DNA of 64,000 nucleotides, taken from IMG/VR virus record IMGVR_UViG_3300023179_000053, positions 1-64,000 of that record, one strand, 5' to 3'. The notes beneath the pieces are model-generated. The model saw nothing but the letters and a program-made list of their open reading frames with translations. It did no database searches and had not been told where the DNA came from. Shown piece by piece: positions 18,151 to 25,039 of this stretch; positions within the stretch are counted from its first letter, which is position 1, and the number at the start of each line of letters is the position of its first letter. The DNA is from a virus. The translations under genes and the position numbers were made by a program.

Positions 18151-18552
18151 GCCACAAGTATACATAACAAATCAATGTCTGCGACATTCTGAAAAGAAAA
18201 TCTTATACCCCGCCCGAATTTATGATCTATCCTTGTGCAAGAAATAATTATTTATATACCTAATCAATATTATTACTCTGTTAAACCGGCATTGTATACA
18301 CTATAAGTGGCGACTCGTCGCTTTAGGACCGTTATAGGGGAGCAGCGCATCGGACATTCGTTCGGTGCGTTGTTCTTTTCTGGCAACTTTTTTCCCCGCC
18401 CGATCTGTGCAAAAATTTGAGTATATATTTTATAAGGGTTAATTAACATTTTTGATATTGAACAATACCTCTGTCTCCCCCGGTCAAACGGGTGTACAAG
18501 CAGCACATAGCTGCCTTGTACACCCGCAAGTGTAGCCGTAATGCGATTCGCA

Positions 18553-18585
18553 GTTGAGTACACTTACTTGGGGTAATAGTAAGTT
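18553..18585 (+). promoter_or_regulatory. Cassette core box, first of 11 copies; putative promoter or protein-binding site
   Basis: Contains inverted ACTTACT-N9-AGTAAGT; ends in a TANNNT hexamer (TAAGTT/TAAGGT/TAGGTT) in all copies, 25-70 nt before SD-led ATGs. Confidence 0.7.
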
Positions 18586-18637
18586 GTTCTTTACCAACCC
18601 CAACCGAAACAGAAGTAGGTGGGAAAGGGGGAACGCA

Positions 18638-18904
18638 ATGTTCCTGTTCAACTATGTAATCGCAGTACGCACCGATGACGGTGTGGAGTTGCCATACCTG
18701 ATCAAGGAGAACGCACCGCACAGTGCGTACTCACTCATCGTGAAACTCATCAACCCAGACGGTTCAGTTGAGCCGAAGCAACAGGTGTTGAGTCTCGAAG
18801 GTATGGAGCGTGGTAAGGACTACTCTCTCTTTGAGAGCTGGGCTGAATACGACAAGGCTCTGACTCTGGAGAAGGTGTTCCGTCGCATGTTCAGCGGTCG
18901 CTAA
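18638..18904 (+). CDS. Cassette 1 hypothetical protein (MFLFNYVIAV...)
   Basis: SD AAGGGGG before ATG 18638; terminator at 18916-18952. Confidence 0.75.
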   Translation: MFLFNYVIAVRTDDGVELPYLIKENAPHSAYSLIVKLINPDGSVEPKQQVLSLEGMERGKDYSLFESWAEYDKALTLEKVFRRMFSGR

Positions 18905-18915
18905 GACGCTGGATA

Positions 18916-18952
18916 GGGGGCGGGGTCGCAAGACCCCGCCCCTTCTTTTTTT
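18916..18952 (+). terminator. Intrinsic terminator of cassette 1; equivalents near 19268, 19782, 20332, 20940, 21443, 21899, 22443, 22950, 23538 and 24115
   Basis: GC-rich stems, mostly with GCAA/GAAA tetraloops, followed by T-tracts after every cassette ORF. Confidence 0.9.
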
Positions 18953-19079
18953 GTTTCGGTGGGCGGGCATGCTGCGTCTAGCCGACTTGCACGCCCACAA
19001 ACACGGTACAAGGTATCTCTCAGTTGAGTACACTTACTTCACCTGATAGTAAGGTGGTTGGCAGAAGGGAGGACTACCA

Positions 19080-19181
19080 ATGGACATCACCGTGTCTATC
19101 AGCGAGTACCTCGGCTACGGTATCACCGTCGCCGTGTTCGGCGCTGTGGTCATCGTGTCGTACCTGCGCAACAAGCGCTAG
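19080..19181 (+). CDS. Cassette 2: 33-aa single-TM peptide MDITVSISEYLGYGITVAVFGAVVIVSYLRNKR (not in ORF track)
   Basis: SD GGGAGG; hydrophobic helix plus basic tail; occupies the ORF slot of the cassette. Confidence 0.75.
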   Translation: MDITVSISEYLGYGITVAVFGAVVIVSYLRNKR

Positions 19182-19453
19182 TCCGTACACAGCAATAAGC
19201 ACCACTGGTCCACTACCCGAAGCATTGCCTTTGGGAGAAGGGAGAGAGATGAGAGTGCTCAGGGTGCGAGGGGGGCGAGCCGAAAGGCTCGCCCCCCTCT
19301 TTTTTTGTCTTTTGCGTGGTGGGCATGCGTGCGCCTAGCCGGCTTGCACGCCACTCCACACGGTGCATAGGTTCACTAGGTTGAGTACACTTACTCGGCG
19401 TGATAGTAAGTTAGTTCTCGTGGTGGCGAGCCAACACGCCAGGGAGGTACACC

Positions 19454-19759
19454 ATGGCACAAGGCAAGCAAGCACACCCGACCGCACGGCTCAAGGGCAC
19501 GGCGGTCACACCAGCGGTCGCAACGACCGCACAAGTGGTGGTTGCCCCAGCAACGACCACACCGCAAGTGGTGGCTGCCCCAGCAGTCACTCCGCAAGCG
19601 CCGAAGCGCAAGGCTCAGCCTGCGCCGAAGCGCAAGCGCCAGCGCAAGCCAATGAGCGAAGCGACGAAGCGCAAGATTCGTCGTGCTCACCGCAAGCGCA
19701 CTCGTCGCAATCGAATCCGCAAGGCACTCCGCCGAGCGGTTCGGTTCGGCAAGAAATAA
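19454..19759 (+). CDS. Cassette 3: highly basic protein with an Arg/Lys-rich C-terminus
   Basis: SD GGGAGG; ATT.QVV.AP repeats, then KRKRQRK...RRAHRKRTRRNR. Confidence 0.75.
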   Translation: MAQGKQAHPTARLKGTAVTPAVATTAQVVVAPATTTPQVVAAPAVTPQAPKRKAQPAPKRKRQRKPMSEATKRKIRRAHRKRTRRNRIRKALRRAVRFGKK

Positions 19760-19995
19760 ACCCACCGCTTGCCACCACGGGGGCGGGGCGGGGCGAAAGC
19801 CCCGCCCCGCTCCTTTTTTTGTCTTTTGAAGGGCGGGCATGCGTGCGCCTAGCCGGCTTGCACGCCTTTTCACCCGATACACTCACTTACTCGGTTGAGT
19901 ACACTTACTTGGCGTAATAGTAAGTTGTTGAGTACCGCCAAGCACCTAGTCACGCAAGTAGCGTGGGGTAAGCAAGGTGGTGGAGGGAATACGCA

Positions 19996-20301
19996 ATGGC
20001 AATGGAAATCATCACCGCCATCGTTCAGGCATTGGCAAGCCTGAACCCCAACAAGCCCCAAGTGGGCGTGTGGTTGCCCGAAGCGACCTACACGAACGCA
20101 GGCACGGTGCTTGACGACAAGGCGTTCAACCGCCACTACGCCGACTGGTACAGCCGTATCGTTTCGGTGGCAGGGCAAGTGAATGTCGTGTGGGTTGCCG
20201 AAATCCGCATTGACGAAAACGGCATCAACACGGTGGCGGAGTGTTATCTCAGCCCTACCGCAATGGTTGAGCCAACCGTAATACTCGGCGTGCGCAAGTA
20301 G
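19996..20301 (+). CDS. Cassette 4 hypothetical protein
   Basis: SD GGAGGG; followed by terminator. Confidence 0.75.
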   Translation: MAMEIITAIVQALASLNPNKPQVGVWLPEATYTNAGTVLDDKAFNRHYADWYSRIVSVAGQVNVVWVAEIRIDENGINTVAECYLSPTAMVEPTVILGVRK

Positions 20302-20527
20302 GCACGCCAGCGCCGAACCTCCCACGGCGCAGGGGGCGGGGTCGCAAGACTCCGCCCCCGCTTTTTTTTGCCTTTTGAAGGGCGGGCATGCGTGCGCCTA
20401 GCCGGCTTGCACGCCCTTTCACCAGATACACTTACTCTCTGAGTTGAGTACACTTACTTTATCTAATACTAAGGTAATACACATCAAGTCGTGCTGAACA
20501 GAAGTAGGTACGAGATTGGGGAATGTA

Positions 20528-20932
20528 ATGGATACGGATAAACTTCGGATAATCCTGATGAGTGTCTACTTGATACTCAAAGAGCGTTACAACAAGTTGG
20601 GTGAAATCATTGAGAATGCCCCACCCGCACCAGAACACGCTGAGAAAGCGGTGGACTTGGTGCTTCACTGCGTTACCGCCATTCAGGAAGTTCATCATCA
20701 CCGAGATGATTTGGTCATTCACCTCAATGAGGGTATGGTCAACGAAAAAGTACGGTTCCAGCCAGACAGTCAGCAGGCATTGGCTCTGATAATGGGGTTG
20801 CGTGAAGTCAACATCACCATCACCAAACTAGCAGAACTGTTGCCGTTGGCGCACCGAGATGCCAACTGGTTGCGAACGACTGGAAATGTTGTAAACCACG
20901 GCATTCAGGAGTATGTCGATGGACTGAAATAA
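20528..20932 (+). CDS. Cassette 5 hypothetical helical protein (MDTDKLR...)
   Basis: SD GGGGA; followed by terminator. Confidence 0.72.
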   Translation: MDTDKLRIILMSVYLILKERYNKLGEIIENAPPAPEHAEKAVDLVLHCVTAIQEVHHHRDDLVIHLNEGMVNEKVRFQPDSQQALALIMGLREVNITITKLAELLPLAHRDANWLRTTGNVVNHGIQEYVDGLK

Positions 20933-21126
20933 GAAGTCGGGCGGGGGGCGAAAGCCTCCCGCCCTCTTTTTTTGTGATCTGGTGGGCGGGCGAGCTGCGA
21001 CTAGCTGTCTTGCACGCCCACTCACACGCTACACTTACTCACCAAGTTGAGTACACTTACTTGATGTGATAGTAAGGTGTTATTCACAAGGCGGTGCTCG
21101 GATAGCACCGCAGAAAGGGGAGCGTC

Positions 21127-21432
21127 ATGCTACCCAACAGCGAGAATAAAGCAGTTGAGAAATTGGTCAACCTGCTTGCGAATACAGGCTACACCGTCAA
21201 CCAAAAACGTTGGGATGATGGGGCAGAAACAAAAGAAGTTCAGATTCCGCTCGGAACTGACTTCATGTTTCTGAAACTCTATCGCCCGTCAGAAAACGAC
21301 AGTTGGGTGCTGTCGGAACTGACTACTGGCAACGAACTTGCCATGATGTGGCAACCAACGCCGTATGAAAATGCGGTGAAGCAGATCGTTCATGAAATCA
21401 TTGACGGTCGCTTAGTCAAAACAAAACGCTAG
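21127..21432 (+). CDS. Cassette 6 hypothetical protein
   Basis: SD AAGGGGAG; followed by terminator. Confidence 0.75.
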   Translation: MLPNSENKAVEKLVNLLANTGYTVNQKRWDDGAETKEVQIPLGTDFMFLKLYRPSENDSWVLSELTTGNELAMMWQPTPYENAVKQIVHEIIDGRLVKTKR

Positions 21433-21648
21433 GAGGAGCGCAAGGGGAGCGGGGCGAAAGCCCCGCTCCCTTTTTTGCTTTTTGCGTGGTGGGCGTGCTG
21501 CGCCTAGCCGGCTTGCACACCACTTCTCCTGACACACTCACTCACTAGGTTGAGTACACTTACTTGGCGTAATAGTAGGTTGTTGAGTGTCGCCAAGCAC
21601 CTAGTCACGCAAGTAGCGTGGGGTAAGCGAAGCGATAAGGGGAATGTA

Positions 21649-21852
21649 ATGTCGCTATTCCAAAAAGGCGATAAGGTCACATTCATTCGTGGTAAGCGCA
21701 AAGGCGAGACTTGGGTGGTTGAGTTTCATAACTACCACGGCGTTGGCGTTTATCCACTCAAAGGCGAAACCCAACACAAGCGACCAATCGTCGGTATGCT
21801 GGCAGACGCAAACGACCTGATACTCACCGAGCGTGTGTTGACGGTCGTGTAA
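21649..21852 (+). CDS. Cassette 7 small SH3/KOW-like protein (MSLFQKGDKVTFIRGKRKGETWVV)
   Basis: SD AAGGGG; KOW-like GD.V....G..KG pattern. Confidence 0.7.
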   Translation: MSLFQKGDKVTFIRGKRKGETWVVEFHNYHGVGVYPLKGETQHKRPIVGMLADANDLILTERVLTVV

Positions 21853-22094
21853 TCCCCCCAAGACACCCTTGTGGCTAGGGTGTGACGCTATGCGTCAGAG
21901 TGGCGAGCAGGAGTGGTGTCCTGCTCGCCACTTTCTTTTTTTGTTTTTTTGCGGGTGGGCGAGCTGCGCCTAGCCGGCTTGCACACCCGCACACACGGCA
22001 CATAAACTCTCTCAGTTGAGTACACTTACTTGATACAATACTAAGTTGTTGAGTGCCAGCCGAAACCCAAGTAAGTTGGCAGGGAGAAATAGCA

Positions 22095-22436
22095 ATGCCA
22101 AAAGTCAAACTCAGCGACCTTGTGAAGTCTTTTCAGTTCACACGAAAGGCGCAAAAAGTAAAGGAATACAAGGGAGTAACGGTGAACGGCAAGAGCCCGC
22201 ATCGTTGGGCGGAATACGCTAGAAAGCACCACACAGGTGACTTGCTTGCTTGCCAATTCATCTTTCTTGGTGCGATTAGTCAGCGCACCGTAGACACTTT
22301 CGTTCAGAAAGTGCGTGATGAAATTGATACTGACCAGAAAATTGCCCTACCCACCGAGCGTGAGTTGGAGCAAGCCCAGGAGCAAGACCGTATCGGTACA
22401 GGGTTGCCGACCAAGTTCTGGGTGAAGGGAGTGTAA
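22095..22436 (+). CDS. Cassette 8 protein (MPKVKLSDL...)
   Basis: SD AGGGAG; N-terminus shared with cassettes 9-11. Confidence 0.75.
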   Translation: MPKVKLSDLVKSFQFTRKAQKVKEYKGVTVNGKSPHRWAEYARKHHTGDLLACQFIFLGAISQRTVDTFVQKVRDEIDTDQKIALPTERELEQAQEQDRIGTGLPTKFWVKGV

Positions 22437-22630
22437 GAAGTTGGGCGGGGGCGAAAGCCCCCGCCCTTTTTCTTTGTCTTGCGGGTGGGCGAGAGGCGCT
22501 TAGCCAGCTTGCACGCCCGCTCACACGGGGCATAGACACAATGAATTGAGTACACTTACTTGACCTAATAGTAAGTTGTTGAGTGCTGACGGGGACGCAA
22601 TTCCCTACCACCCCGCAGTGGAGAAAAGCA

Positions 22631-22930
22631 ATGGCAAAAGTCAAACTCAGCGAGATTCAGAATCAGCTGGTCAAGCGTGGGCGAGATGCCTATCAGAACC
22701 CCGAACTCGAAGCGGAACTGATGACACTCGACCCGTCAGACCCCGATTCGGCAATCTCGTTTGACGAAGCGCAATTCACGGGAGACCCCGACAGTGACGC
22801 ATACACGAACCACAAGAACTTGTGGCGTGCTCGTGTCGCTTCGTGCGCCGAGCGTGTGTTGCCCGAAGCGGAACTCACGATTCAGTGGACTCGTGAGACC
22901 CACGAGATGATTGTCTCGTTCCGCAAGTAA
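22631..22930 (+). CDS. Cassette 9 protein, paralog family A (MAKVKLSEIQNQLVKRGRDAY)
   Basis: SD GGAG; clear paralog of cassettes 10 and 11. Confidence 0.85.
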   Translation: MAKVKLSEIQNQLVKRGRDAYQNPELEAELMTLDPSDPDSAISFDEAQFTGDPDSDAYTNHKNLWRARVASCAERVLPEAELTIQWTRETHEMIVSFRK

Positions 22931-22980
22931 TACCCCGCAATGGGAATCGCCCCGCCGAGTGACACGGCGGGGCTTTTCTC

Positions 22981-23019
22981 GCTGGCGTTCTTGATGCTAT
23001 TCGCATCTTGACCGCCAGC
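22981..23019 (-). repeat. Inverted-orientation copy of the cassette inverted-repeat element (also 23568-23606 and 24145-24181)
   Basis: Cores GCTATTCGC, GCTAATCGC and GCTAGGCGC are reverse complements of the forward GC-RNNTA-GC core. Confidence 0.75.
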
Positions 23020-23226
23020 CGCCCTGGTAGCGCTCTCTCGATCTCTTTAGTACACATTTCTCAACGTAAGCGGGCGTACAAGGAGCGCTTAGCTCCCTTG
23101 TACGACCGGCTCGCTGGTTCATACCCATAGGCAGTTGAATACACTTACTCGGCGCAATAGTAAGGTATTGAGTGTTGATGGGCGCTGAGTAAATCAGCAC
23201 TAGACCCCCACAACAGGAGAAACAGA

Positions 23227-23520
23227 ATGGCTAAGGTCAGTCTGTCGGCAATACAGTCACAACTCGTCAAGCGTGGGCGTGATGCCTACGAGAACGAGGC
23301 GCTAGCCGAGGAGTTGCGAGGGCTTGACCCGAGCGACCCCGACAGCGCCATCAAGTTCGCTGACGCTCAGGGCGACCCCAACGATGAGAAATACACCAAC
23401 CACAAGAACTTGTGGCGTGGGCGTGTCTCGTCGGTCGCATCGCAACTCGGTATCCCCGATGGGGCGTTGAGCATCATCTGGACATTCTCGGGTGAGATGG
23501 TCGTGACCTACAAGCGCTAG
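23227..23520 (+). CDS. Cassette 10 protein, paralog family A
   Basis: SD AGGAG; LDPSDPDSAI and YTNHKNLWR shared with cassette 9. Confidence 0.85.
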   Translation: MAKVSLSAIQSQLVKRGRDAYENEALAEELRGLDPSDPDSAIKFADAQGDPNDEKYTNHKNLWRGRVSSVASQLGIPDGALSIIWTFSGEMVVTYKR

Positions 23521-23810
23521 ACATAGGGCGCAGAGAGTGGGCGAGGCGCAAGCCTCGCCCATTTCTCGCTGGTGTTCTAGATGCTAATCGCATCTTGACC
23601 ACCAGCCTTTGGGTTTCCCTATCTCTCTCATTTTTAATACTCATTTTCTAATAGTTTTGTTTATGTGGGTGGGCGAAGCAGCGCTTAGCTGATTGCACAC
23701 CCACTCTCTCGGTACACGCATTCGCATAGTTGAGCGCACTTACTTGGCATGATAGTAGGTTGATACATGTGAACGGCGAGCCGCCAACAAACACGAAAGA
23801 GAGAACAACT

Positions 23811-24089
23811 ATGAAAGTCAGACTTTCCGACATTCAGAGTCAACTGGTGAAGCGTGGGCGTGACGCATTCCAAGACCCAATCTTGGAAGCAGGCTTGCTC
23901 TCGCTCAATGCCGACAACGAAGACGAAGCATTCGTCTACGAAGCAGGCAAAGGCAATCCCGAAGATGAGAACTACGGTTCGCACAAAAACAAGGTGCGGG
24001 CTCGTATCGTCTCAGTGGCAGAACAGAACAGTCTGTCGGTGTCCATTATGTGGACATTCGCAGGCGACTGTGTAATCACACTGAAATAA
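23811..24089 (+). CDS. Cassette 11 protein, paralog family A
   Basis: MKVRLSDIQSQLVKRGRDAF...HKNKVRAR...IMWTF. Confidence 0.85.
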   Translation: MKVRLSDIQSQLVKRGRDAFQDPILEAGLLSLNADNEDEAFVYEAGKGNPEDENYGSHKNKVRARIVSVAEQNSLSVSIMWTFAGDCVITLK

Positions 24090-24903
24090 CAACCAGGCTT
24101 GCCGTTCGCAGGATAAGGCGCACCGAAAGGTGCGCCTTTTTCCGTTGGTGGTCAAGATGCTAGGCGCATCTTGACCACCAATTTTTTCAATGTTTTTGTC
24201 TCTATAAATTTAATACAAATTTCTAATGCCTTTGTTTGGCGGGTGCTCCAAATAAAAATGCATTTTTATTTGCACACCCGTGTTTTTTTATTTATTTATT
24301 CCTTTACTTTAATCTATATTCCTAATTACATCTATGCATTTGTTTATGTATTTCAAATTGTAATTAGTTTTGACTATGCGCACACAAGACAAATTTTTTT
24401 TGGGCATACCGTGGTATGCCAAAGGCTGTGGTGAATGCTGTTTAGTTCTCTCCGGCTATTGCCATACAGATCTATACATTACCCCGCACATTATTATCTA
24501 GGTAATAACAACGGTGTAATCATTACGGCAAACACCACGTATTAAAATTTCTAAATCCCTCGATAGACCTCCACTCAAATTCCTGTTTAGTTCTACCGAT
24601 TAAAAGGGTGATGTATCTGGCAATAAAAAAATCGGGATTTATTTGTTTCTTTCAGTATATGTAAATGCCTTTATGTACTTTTAGACACCCTAATGGGATA
24701 TATATACGTTCTCAAATTATGAGCACTTCACAATTGCACACTTTTTATCTGTTTTTACCCCATTTTTCCCTACTTTTCCCCACTTTTTACCACTTTTTAC
24801 TATGTTTTTGCCTATTTTTATAGTTTTTTTTGTGCCGATTTTAGGCAAAATTTTTTTGGAATATGCCTATTTCTAAGCATATTCCTTTATTTTTGGCTAC
24901 AAA

Positions 24904-24919
24904 TGTTCCACGTGGAACG
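24904..24919. other. parS-like palindrome TGTTCCACGTGGAACG
   Basis: Perfect 14-bp palindrome close to the bacterial chromosomal parS consensus TGTTNCACGTGAAACA, in a long non-coding region. Confidence 0.65.
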
Positions 24920-24974
24920 CTGAACTACAATCTATTTTAATATATACAACGAGATTGGAGTGGTCGTCTCTTAC

Positions 24975-25039
24975 TATTTAACCACGTAAGCATAAGTTTG
25001 TGAGTATTTAACCACGTAAGCATAAGTTTGTGAGTATTT
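24975..25039. repeat. Exact 30-bp tandem duplication
   Basis: TATTTAACCACGTAAGCATAAGTTTGTGAG x2. Confidence 0.9.

Follow-up and report, generated by a model that had tools for sequence, protein, structure and literature searches.

A strand-asymmetric, covarying hairpin coupled to a promoter-like box in the gene cassettes of a lake actinophage

Each small gene unit in a GC-rich island of a lake phage was found to be preceded by a hairpin of about 40 nt, the stem of which changes by compensating mutations, which folds better on one DNA strand, and which lies about 46 nt from a conserved promoter-like box. No described element has this layout, and the role that we propose below, as the upstream half of a promoter module, is tentative and inferred from sequence alone. 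The analyzed window is a 64,000-nt stretch of a 94-kb siphovirus genome of 33% GC, and the element is confined to a 5.8-kb island of 52-59% GC. Two WhiB genes point to an actinobacterial host. At least ten related metagenomic phage contigs carry the same element in the same kind of island. Two of the results are new, namely that the distance from the hairpin to the downstream box is fixed, whichever way the hairpin points, and that the distance to the upstream terminator varies.

A first-pass annotation of the window had described an inverted-repeat element with covarying arms around an asymmetric core, present in both orientations, and this observation was confirmed. The arms and cores it listed are all present where it placed them, as are three copies with the reverse-complement core, the last with perfect 16-nt arms, and a degenerate copy with an AT-rich palindromic interior. 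The window thus holds 11 forward copies, one upstream of each of 11 promoter-like boxes, 3 reverse copies and 1 degenerate copy (Table 1). One correction should be made, as copy 3 carries a G.T wobble in its arms, while it is copy 7 that carries the perfect CACCAC. The motif GCRNNTAGC occurs 20 times in the window, as compared to 9.0 +/- 3.0 in shuffled sequences (0 of 100 shuffles reach 20), with 16 of the 20 occurrences lying in the island. A covariance model built from 29 copies gave hits only inside the islands, with E from 1e-17 to 1e-5, and nowhere else in the 94-kb genome. The reverse copies match this model only on the - strand. A search against Rfam at the gathering thresholds of the families returned only five tRNAs in the window.

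Table 1 Coordinates of the hairpin copies and boxes in the window. Scores refer to the covariance model; L013 and L017 are related phages.
Position	Strand	Feature	Details	Model score
18489..18526	+	Hairpin copy 1 (perfect-arm type A')	core GCACATAGC	
18959..18998	+	Hairpin copy 2 (type A)	arms GTGGGCG/CGCCCAC, core GCGTCTAGC	55 bits
19316..19354	+	Hairpin copy 3 (type A)	arms GTGGTG/CGCCAC with a G.T wobble	59.5 bits
19828..19870	+	Hairpin copy 4 (type A)	arms AAGGGCG/CGCCTTT	60.3 bits
20377..20419	+	Hairpin copy 5 (type A)	arms AAGGGCG/CGCCCTT	64.8 bits
20981..21021	+	Hairpin copy 6 (type A)	core GCGACTAGC	60.5 bits
21486..21523	+	Hairpin copy 7 (type A)	arms GTGGTG/CACCAC	57 bits
21950..21990	+	Hairpin copy 8 (type A)	arms GCGGGTG/CACCCGC	63.2 bits
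22481..22520	+	Hairpin copy 9 (type A)	arms GCGGGTG/CGCCCGC with a T.G wobble	61.6 bits
22981..23019	-	Reverse copy B1	directly after the terminator of cassette 9; reads GCGAATAGC on the - strand	- strand only
23071..23108	+	Hairpin copy 10 (type A')		29.2 bits
23568..23606	-	Reverse copy B2	after the terminator of cassette 10	- strand, E 0.02
23665..23703	+	Hairpin copy 11 (type A)		56 bits
24145..24181	-	Reverse copy B3	perfect 16-nt arms, followed by a T-run	- strand, E 1e-3
24240..24280	+	Degenerate terminal copy	CGGGTG/CACCCG outer arms, AT-rich palindromic interior, T-run after it; conserved in L013 and L017	
18554..18585	+	Promoter box 1	TTGAGTACAC...TAAGTT (box plus -10-like TAnnnT), 47 nt from the centre of hairpin 1	
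19024..19055	+	Promoter box 2	46 nt from the hairpin centre	
19381..19412	+	Promoter box 3		
19895..19926	+	Promoter box 4		
20444..20475	+	Promoter box 5		
21047..21078	+	Promoter box 6		
21550..21581	+	Promoter box 7		
22016..22047	+	Promoter box 8		
22546..22577	+	Promoter box 9		
23135..23166	+	Promoter box 10	TTGAATACAC	
23730..23761	+	Promoter box 11	TTGAGCGCAC	
23046..23065	+	AT-rich box	TTTAGTACACATTTCTCAAC, no -10; exactly 46 nt from the centre of B1	
23633..23652	+	AT-rich box	TTTAATACTCATTTTCTAAT, 46 nt from the centre of B2	
24209..24228	+	AT-rich box	TTTAATACAAATTTCTAATG, 46 nt from the centre of B3	
18417..18449	+	Left-edge box (candidate promoter P0)	TTGAGTATATATTTT plus TAACAT (inferred -10), upstream of hairpin 1; no hairpin 46 nt upstream of it	

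Covariation of the stem, which had been set beforehand as a test of the element, was examined over 29 copies from four phages. In this alignment, 94.2% of the cells are paired, as compared to 83.6% in shuffles, and the covariation score is 0.337, as compared to 0.136 in shuffles (0 of 500 reach it) and 0.01-0.06 when the partners are slid. The outermost variable pair is Watson-Crick in 29 of 29 copies, with four pair types (CG 11, AU 8, UA 8 and GC 2). Compensatory double changes were also seen between orthologous cassettes of different phages. Upstream of the MDIT-peptide gene, for example, the outer arm is GTGGGCG/CGCCCAC in the window, GAGGGCG/CGCCCTT in the phage L013 and GAGGGAG/CTCCCTT in the phage L014. 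The core is GCG-NNT-AGC, in which G, T and A are essentially fixed (with one A for G in copy 1), while its two closing pairs covary, reading TCG..AGA in L013:11723 and GTG..AAC in L014:12028.

The two strands of the element are not equivalent. Forward copies fold better on the + strand in 44 of 50 cases with RNA parameters and in 45 of 50 with DNA parameters (Wilcoxon p 6e-9), and the transition-type mismatches are G.T, never A.C, on the element's own strand. As the island has A>T on the + strand, a C-to-T mutation bias does not explain this asymmetry. These results bear on the possibility that the element is an ordinary double-stranded operator, in which a dimeric or tetrameric regulator would bind two GGGYGKGC half-sites about three helical turns apart, with arm symmetry kept by palindrome-templated repair rather than by selection for folding. 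Such an operator would resemble the upstream activator site of phage phi29 p4 or the repressor sites repeated in actinophage intergenic regions. In favor of this reading, the distance from the dyad centre to the box is fixed and does not depend on orientation, GG.G and C.CC are invariant in the arms, and CTTGCAC is conserved on the 3' arm without a paired partner. Repeated intergenic protein sites are, moreover, common in actinophages (stoperators, PMC9283540; ESAS inverted repeats, PMC3203893). However, a protein cannot require any base provided that both half-sites carry the same one, duplex recognition does not predict the G.T-only mismatches, and the asymmetric core is conserved in orientation at given positions. 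We thus consider a duplex operator to be unlikely.

The loop centre lies 45-48.5 nt upstream of a TT(G/T)AGTAC box in about 58 copies from six phages, for forward, perfect-arm and reverse copies alike, while the distance from the terminator T-run varies from 21 to 54 nt. In a histogram of palindrome-to-box distances, the 42-47 nt bin holds 62 cases, as compared to about 13 in the background bins. This rigid coupling, which was missed in the first-pass annotation, ties the hairpin to the promoter module rather than to the terminator. The type A copies are not themselves intrinsic terminators, as they are followed by (T/A)CACACGG rather than by a T-run, with the true terminators lying upstream, although B3 and the terminal degenerate copy do have T-runs after them. 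Downstream of the box, a -10-like hexamer (TAAGTT, TAGTGT or, in the phage L017, TGnTATTGT) fits actinobacterial promoters. TAnnnT is present in all lineages and TGn in L017 and a further lineage, L022, while TAAGTT is also the -10 of rrn promoters read in Corynebacterium and in small Microbacteriaceae genomes. It should nonetheless be noted that the distance from box to -10 is 20-21 nt, longer than canonical, such that the assignment to sigma-A type promoters remains a prediction from sequence. The phage encodes two WhiB genes, while no sigma factor was found in it.

Our favored, although tentative, explanation is that the element forms the upstream half of a bipartite cis-regulatory module (hairpin, then 46-47 nt, then box) preceding each small early-type transcription unit of the island, and that these units would be read by host (actinobacterial sigma-A type) RNA polymerase. 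In this view, the hairpin works as a folded structure of one particular strand, the + strand for the 11 forward copies, centred about 84 nt upstream of the inferred start site, and most likely serves as the docking site for a structure-specific protein of phage or host that would tune, activate, repress or insulate the adjacent promoter. Extrusion from duplex DNA would need help from that putative protein and from the negative supercoiling generated behind the transcribing polymerase. Indeed, a rough energy estimate, which relies on an assumed supercoiling constant, indicates that the imperfect type A copies would not extrude unaided, with a cost of about 40 kcal/mol against about 29 kcal/mol of relief at superhelical density -0.06 (0 of 43 favorable), and that only the reverse copies (9 of 11) and some perfect-arm copies (2 of 7) would extrude. 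In the distant L018 lineage, the box is 60-190 nt upstream of the likely gene promoter, and the hairpin's partner is therefore the box, not necessarily RNA polymerase. While our analysis demonstrates that base pairing is under selection, that the strands are asymmetric, that the core loop is essentially invariant and that the distance to the box is fixed in both orientations, it is only by inference that the fold is assigned to DNA rather than RNA, that a protein is taken to bind it and that any direction of effect on transcription is considered.

An RNA role is less likely but cannot be excluded. Here, the hairpin would be made in sense transcripts that read through the upstream terminator or, for copy 1, that start at P0, and would act as a back-up terminator or insulator, as a processing or stabilizing site, or as a boxB-like protein-binding site of a nut-type antitermination signal with the downstream box as its linear partner. 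G.U wobbles on the sense strand only are what an RNA hairpin shows, and the island's own terminators show them too. A GNNUA pentaloop closed by G.A recalls boxB-type loops, and the same GC-RNNTA-GC mini-hairpin occurs in two 5' UTRs, at 19951-19965 and 21606-21620, which are certainly transcribed. Copy 1 lies downstream of candidate promoter P0 with no terminator in between, and cassette 3 encodes an arginine/lysine-rich protein that could bind RNA. On the other hand, the hairpins lie behind textbook terminators with 10-14 bp GC stems and T7-8 runs, so little RNA should contain them, and the spacing is fixed to the downstream box and not to the terminator. The reverse copies are conserved at the same three places in four phages and keep the 46-nt spacing, although their RNA loop would be the complement. 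Finally, the box lies upstream of the cassette's own inferred start site and would be absent from that cassette's own transcript, and its resemblance to the actinobacterial rrn boxA region is not significant.

The interpretation offered in the first-pass annotation was only partly supported by our results. A directional, covarying hairpin lying between terminator and promoter and behaving as a fold of one strand fits its suggestion of a hairpin recognized on single-stranded nucleic acid, and its suggestion that the element acts as DNA is plausible and strengthened by the fixed distance to the box. Its proposals of a recombination site and of inversion between opposed copies are not supported, while nothing points to its proposed signal for staged injection. 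A single-strand recombination or transposition site, such as integron attC or the subterminal hairpins of IS200/IS605, could mobilize the cassettes. Indeed, cassette content and order differ between sister phages while the modules stay the same, and the hairpins are strand-specific with conserved mismatches, with each cassette having its own arm sequence, features shared with attC (PMC2727003). However, no tyrosine integrase, serine recombinase, resolvase or Y1 transposase was found in the 90%-complete genome. The profile PF00589 had no match in the 93.8-kb genome, while its control was positive in 14 of 14 genomes, and PF01797 also had no match. The opposed copies are collinear in all four sister phages that show them, and no inversion or empty site is seen among the relatives. 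RYYYAAC/GTTRRRY boxes are absent, the cassettes carry their own predicted promoter and their own terminator, roughly 100-170 nt of similar module sequence on each side is enough for homologous exchange, and this model does not explain the 46-nt coupling. We therefore regard it as very unlikely. REP/BIME-type elements are dispersed across a genome, whereas all copies here are confined to the island; single matches in bacterial genomes are chance hits, and L033 has no model hit.

Similarly doubtful is a single-strand replication signal (a priming or ssi-type hairpin) or a DNA-entry pause signal. Mini-hairpin-capped, strand-specific hairpins mark priming sites in G4-type origins and in ssiA (PMC13037366), and the island borders the largest non-coding region, which holds iteron-like repeats. 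Nonetheless, fifteen copies, one per promoter at a fixed distance from a promoter box, do not fit an origin or a single stop signal.

Among known systems, the early promoter hairpins of coliphage N4, recognized by the virion RNA polymerase, are also small DNA hairpins on one strand, capped by a GC-closed loop with a G...A pair and needed at phage early promoters (PMC13037366), although the DNA nature of the fold and the requirement for it are inferred in the present case. In both, the two strands differ in stability. The N4 hairpin, however, has a 5-7 bp stem and a 3-nt loop, lies on the template strand, and is itself the promoter, about 11 nt from the start site, read by a phage T7-like polymerase. 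The present element is 40 nt long, more stable on the non-template strand, and centred about 84 nt upstream of the inferred start of a predicted sigma-A type promoter. No phage polymerase was found, although the PF00940 search that returned nothing had a control that was likewise negative everywhere. The largest ORF (4647 aa) is a tape measure protein with no polymerase domain, and not a virion RNA polymerase, and the other large ORFs are polymerase III-type, RNR, terminase, portal and similar. The core also resembles the DNA mini-hairpin motifs GCGNAGC and GCGNNAGC, which are far more stable as DNA than as RNA and occur in N4 promoter hairpins and in single-strand origins (PMC13037366). The same two G-C pairs and the same G and A positions that form the sheared pair are present, and the distant relative L018 has the listed variant GCGCAAGC at its hairpin centre. 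The loop here, with 3 bases instead of 1-2, is nonetheless one nucleotide longer, with a fixed T, such that comparable stability is only presumed by analogy, and the L017 and L022 lineages use GC-TTYA-GC instead.

Integron attC sites are likewise structure-conserved, sequence-variable imperfect hairpins, one per cassette, and in them the strand choice is set by unpaired features (PMC2727003). A conserved G/A mismatch and an asymmetric loop are present in our element, where a comparable strand choice and any link to recombination would rest on analogy alone. While attC has conserved outer R boxes and a variable centre, lies 3' of promoterless genes and needs IntI, here the centre is conserved and the outer arms vary (nnGGGYG / CRCCCnn in all 29 aligned copies), the hairpin is tied to a promoter box and no integrase was found. 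Cluster A stoperators and Cluster K ESAS inverted repeats also consist of many oriented copies in short intergenic gaps of an actinophage, associated with gene starts (PMC9283540, PMC3203893). Stoperators are, however, 13-mers conserved in sequence and bound by a monomeric repressor as duplex, while ESAS elements lie next to start codons, and neither is reported to show arm covariation or a fixed distance to a promoter box. The upstream activator site of phi29 p4 is, as is inferred here, an inverted repeat centred about 82-84 nt upstream of a promoter that lacks a canonical -35 at canonical spacing, yet it is recognized as duplex by its sequence and is not known to show covariation or strand asymmetry. 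Finally, lambda nut and rrn boxB-boxA antitermination signals also combine a hairpin with a linear box at a set distance, and the pentaloop GNNNA recalls boxB. However, nut sites lie downstream of their promoter and upstream of terminators, whereas the order here is terminator, hairpin, box and inferred start site.

The 93.8-kb viral contig, whose first 64 kb form the window, has about 33% GC. Its large genes encode a Pol III alpha-type DNA polymerase, ribonucleotide reductase, terminase, portal, protease, major head protein and a 4647-aa tape measure protein, so that the phage is a long-tailed siphovirus. Two WhiB-family genes point to an actinobacterial host, while our searches of the genome found no sigma factor, integrase, resolvase or Y1 transposase. 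A search for the T7-like polymerase family should not be weighed either way, as its control failed. Within this genome lies an island of 52-59% GC that holds 11 tandem units on the + strand, each consisting, in order, of a textbook intrinsic terminator, the hairpin element, a conserved box GTTGAGTACACTTACTT-N5-6-RATAGTAAGTT, a short leader with a Shine-Dalgarno site and a small ORF of 33-134 aa, for which no Pfam family was found. The genome also carries at least five tRNA genes, which were the only matches in a search against Rfam. Sister phages keep the same contrast in composition, and this contrast may reflect early genes tuned to host composition or codon use, or escape from AT-binding silencers. 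The coordinates of the features considered here are collected in the table below.

Coordinates of the island, its hairpin copies and neighboring features in the window and in related phage contigs
Feature	Sequence	Coordinates	Strand	Detail
GC-rich island	window	18400-24200
Reverse copy, covariance model hit	window	24144-24181	-	E 1e-3
Reverse copy, covariance model hit	window	23568-23605	-
Reverse copy, covariance model hit	window	22976-23022	-
Degenerate copy	window	24240-24280		T-run after it
Copy with closing pairs TCG..AGA	L013	11723
Copy with closing pairs GTG..AAC	L014	12028
Two-hairpin element left of the island	window	18303-18385		invariant GGACCGTTATAGG at 18326-18338
Two-hairpin element left of the island	L013	11060-11160
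Two-hairpin element left of the island	L017	11758-11850
Cassette 5' UTR hairpins	window	18594-18623, 20489-20513, 22055-22080, 19951-19965, 21606-21620		also in L013, L017 and L026 leaders
Cassette 3 protein gene	window	19454-19759
Cassette 3 protein gene	L013	12663-12998
Three paralogous genes	window	22631-22930, 23227-23520, 23811-24089
T-rich repeats and 30-nt tandem repeat	window	24734-24817 and 24966-25025
parS-like palindrome	window	24904-24919
Repeat arrays and palindromes after hairpin-box units	L018; L016	14800-16200 (L018)
WhiB-family genes	window; genome	37789-37998 (window) and 64842-65021 (genome)	-

The observation made in the first-pass annotation holds, as every arm and core that it listed is present in the sequence. 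There are 11 forward copies and three copies with the reverse-complement core, the latter located directly after the terminators of cassettes 9-11, while the degenerate copy has the same outer arms and an AT-rich palindromic interior. The core pattern GC-RNNTA-GC is over-represented, with 20 occurrences against 9.0 +/- 3.0 expected, 16 of the 20 being in the island. The interpretation offered in that annotation, which included a recombination site, a hairpin recognized on single-stranded DNA and a translocation signal during staged injection, with opposed copies possibly allowing inversion, is supported in part, as discussed below.

To find relatives, we first compared the island with the GenBank phage collection by blastn, which returned no match. 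Searches of IMG/VR with exact 16-17-mers of the box and the core gave single chance hits only. A 20-nt core pattern returned about 120 rows each in bacterial genomes and in metagenomes, nearly all of them single chance matches. Among these, a Rhodoluna MAG contig (L033) looked like a clue to the host but has no hit to the covariance model described below. A flanking 2OG-Fe(II) oxygenase gene, however, led to sister phages in IMG/VR, which have a GC-enriched island at the same place with the same module. The paralogous last three genes of the island (alignment A1) and a DNA pattern brought further contigs, namely L026, L208, L257, L261, L160 and L171, such that at least ten contigs carry the element. 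Gene content and order are mosaic between the islands of the window and the sister phages L013, L014 and L026 (e.g., the MFLFNYVIAV/MQYYFGNVIE gene is first in the window and in L014 but third in L013), while the modules stay constant, which suggests cassette exchange by recombination within the modules. The three paralogous proteins of ~95 aa (MKVNLSDIQS.LVKRGRDAYEN...NHKN) end every island, each being followed by a reverse hairpin and a box lacking a -10. This family has 44 representatives in a library of 1.8 billion proteins, with no Pfam domain and no informative domain otherwise.

Covariation of the arms, which had been proposed beforehand as a test of the element, was examined in an alignment (A2) of 29 type A copies, i.e., those with imperfect arms, from four phages. 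RNAalifold gave an outer stem, a conserved G/A mismatch, a 3-bp inner stem and a GC-closed pentaloop. Of all cells, 94.2% are paired, as compared to 83.6% in shuffled alignments, and the covariation score is 0.337, as compared to 0.136 in shuffles (0 of 500 reach the observed value) and 0.01-0.06 with slid partners. The outermost variable pair is CG in 11 copies, AU in 8, UA in 8 and GC in 2, with none unpaired. Orthologous elements also show compensatory double changes, since the arm upstream of the membrane-peptide gene is GTGGGCG/CGCCCAC in the window, GAGGGCG/CGCCCTT in L013 and GAGGGAG/CTCCCTT in L014. It should be noted that the copies are related by descent and that the shuffle counts are thus not probabilities. 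Nonetheless, four pair types with no exception, together with the changes between orthologs, make pairing the constraint.

A covariance model built from A2 hits only the islands and nothing in the other 88 kb of this genome. The model finds the reverse copies only on the - strand, in the window, three times in L026 (E 1e-5 to 2e-4) and three times in L013. In their own orientation, the reverse copies align with the forward ones, including the G/A mismatch and the loop GCG-NNT-AGC, and they sit after the same three paralogous genes in the window, L013, L026 and L017. Their orientation is therefore conserved, and no inversion between opposed copies is seen among these phages. We consider a recombination site to be very unlikely, and hold much the same view of a replication or entry signal.

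The two strands differ in folding. Of 50 forward copies, 44 (mean -3.8 kcal/mol) fold better on the + strand and 6 on the - strand with RNA parameters, whereas with DNA parameters 45 fold better on the + strand and 3 on the - strand (Wilcoxon p 6e-9). Of 11 reverse copies, 1 folds better on the + strand and 10 on the - strand with DNA parameters (p 0.02), although this result rests on the mismatch type and the loop, since the reverse copies carry no wobble pairs. For the forward copies, all transition-type mismatches are G.T on the + strand and none is A.C, and as the island has A>T on the + strand, a C-to-T bias is not the cause. A symmetric duplex site or a plain cruciform predicts no such asymmetry, and a plain duplex operator is, in our view, unlikely.

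In the core GCG-NNT-AGC, G3, T6 and A7 are essentially invariant, with one A3 in copy 1, while the closing pairs covary in one copy each of L013 and L014. A review of DNA mini-hairpins describes GCGNAGC and GCGNNAGC as two G-C pairs plus a sheared G-A pair, with the DNA form melting at 76.5 C against 39 C for the RNA form, and reports the motif in N4 promoter hairpins and in single-strand priming origins (PMC13037366). As the core here is one base longer, this resemblance should be considered a lead rather than evidence of membership. A distant relative has the listed variant GCGCAAGC at its hairpin centre, while the related contigs L017 and L022 use GC-TTYA-GC. Several cassette 5' UTRs share a hairpin just before the Shine-Dalgarno site whose loop reads (C/T)GAAAC..AAGTA, and in cassettes 4 and 7 this takes the compact form CACGC-AAGTA-GCGTG, with the same GC-RNNTA-GC core as the intergenic hairpins.

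A new finding is the coupling of the hairpin to the box. The distance from the loop centre to the first T of TT(G/T)AGTAC is 45-48.5 nt in about 58 copies from six phages, for forward, perfect-arm and reverse copies alike, and in the window it is 46 nt for nearly all copies, including the three reverse copies B1, B2 and B3. In contrast, the spacer sequence differs between copies and the distance to the upstream T-run ranges from 21 to 54 nt. An unbiased histogram of the distances from palindrome centre to box peaks in the 42-47 nt bin, with 62 cases against about 13 per background bin. The boxes after the reverse copies have no -10 and no gene, and these boxes do not appear to be leftward promoters, as no TAnnnT is found on the - strand. 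In the more distant lineage of L016 and L018, the hairpin-47 nt-box unit lies 60-190 nt upstream of the likely gene promoter, and the units are followed by arrays of GTGTAATA(T/C)AAG repeats and by TGTAATATTACA palindromes before that promoter. The conserved unit is therefore hairpin plus box, and in the window's lineage the box doubles as the -35-side part of the promoter. The -10-like TAnnnT lies 20-21 nt after the box (TAAGTT, TAGTGT; TGnTATTGT in L017), and TAAGTT is also the -10 of rrn promoters that we read in Corynebacterium and in small Microbacteriaceae genomes (L272-L274). This places the hairpin centre near -84, with the start site itself being inferred from sequence. The possibility that the TTGCAC of the hairpin 3' arm serves as the -35 of a second promoter was rejected, as no consistent -10 was found at 16-18 nt.

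Whether the fold acts in DNA or in RNA must be considered in light of evidence that points both ways. The fixed, orientation-independent distance from the dyad centre to a DNA box, the conserved flipped copies, the position behind strong terminators and a core of the DNA mini-hairpin type speak for DNA. A wobble signature identical to that of the terminators, the same GC-RNNTA-GC hairpin in two 5' UTRs and a candidate promoter upstream of copy 1 speak for RNA. A rough estimate gives a cost of about 40 kcal/mol for unaided extrusion of type A copies against about 29 kcal/mol of relief at sigma -0.06, which disfavors unaided cruciform extrusion of these copies. Type A would therefore need a binding protein or transcription-driven supercoiling, whereas most reverse copies would extrude by themselves. 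We also examined whether hairpin plus box imitates the host rrn boxB-boxA signal, but the resemblance of the box to the actinobacterial rrn boxA region (TTGAGAACTCAAYAGTGTG, read in L272-L274) is not significant against shuffles, with p mostly above 0.1, and was dropped as evidence. Further possible resemblances, put forward by analogy only, are those of the L5 stoperator GGTGGMTGTCAAG to GGTGGTCAAG here, and to the actinobacterial DnaA box, the PhoP box, the ssoA CS-6 loop and the T5 nick sites.

Some further features were noted in and around the island. Cassette 3 encodes a conserved protein of 101-111 aa with a proline/alanine-rich N-terminal half and an extremely arginine/lysine-rich C-terminal half (KRKRQRK...RRAHRKRTRRNRIRK), which is a possible nucleic-acid binder and a candidate partner of the hairpins. 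Just left of the island lies a conserved two-hairpin element with an invariant 13-nt single-stranded linker, a long G.U-rich second hairpin and a T-rich tail, in which seven pairs show compensatory changes in three phages. It has no Rfam match and is a candidate small RNA or structured terminator. The 2.3-kb non-coding region right of the island contains five T-rich repeats at 10-11 nt spacing and a 30-nt tandem repeat, both of which lie near the parS-like palindrome and may form an origin or partition region.

Taken together, the analysis shows the hairpin to be a real, family-wide, strand-specific structured element that belongs to the promoter module, whereas the medium in which it folds and any factor that reads it are inferred from sequence alone. 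We tentatively favor a folded-DNA docking site, although with less than even confidence, and regard a role in RNA as less likely. A more far-reaching reading, which we hold with somewhat less confidence than the docking site but which the data do not rule out, is a new promoter architecture in freshwater actinophages, in which a 40-nt hairpin with a mini-hairpin cap would be extruded on one chosen DNA strand, exactly 46-47 nt from an AT-rich box, and read by a structure-specific factor. Early cassettes transcribed by the host polymerase would thus be switched or insulated by DNA shape rather than by sequence, and the flipped copies after the three paralogous genes would give the opposite output. 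If the fold acts in DNA, it is a new way of controlling or insulating tandem transcription units read by the host polymerase, while if it acts in RNA, it is a new structured signal placed between terminator and promoter. Either way, it gives a compact, testable module for uncultured actinobacterial hosts, a marker for finding the early regions of these phages in metagenomes, and a natural data set of more than 60 covarying copies for studying how palindromes evolve.

With respect to known systems, no Rfam family and no paper in the literature searched describes the element, and the defining features of attC, of N4 promoters, of REP elements and of terminators were not found to fit it. Outside coliphage N4, there are very few cases where a folded DNA strand, rather than a duplex sequence, is part of a bacterial promoter. 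Here, a whole phage lineage keeps such a hairpin, with folding in DNA being inferred, at a fixed distance from every early-type promoter across a shuffling array of small genes.
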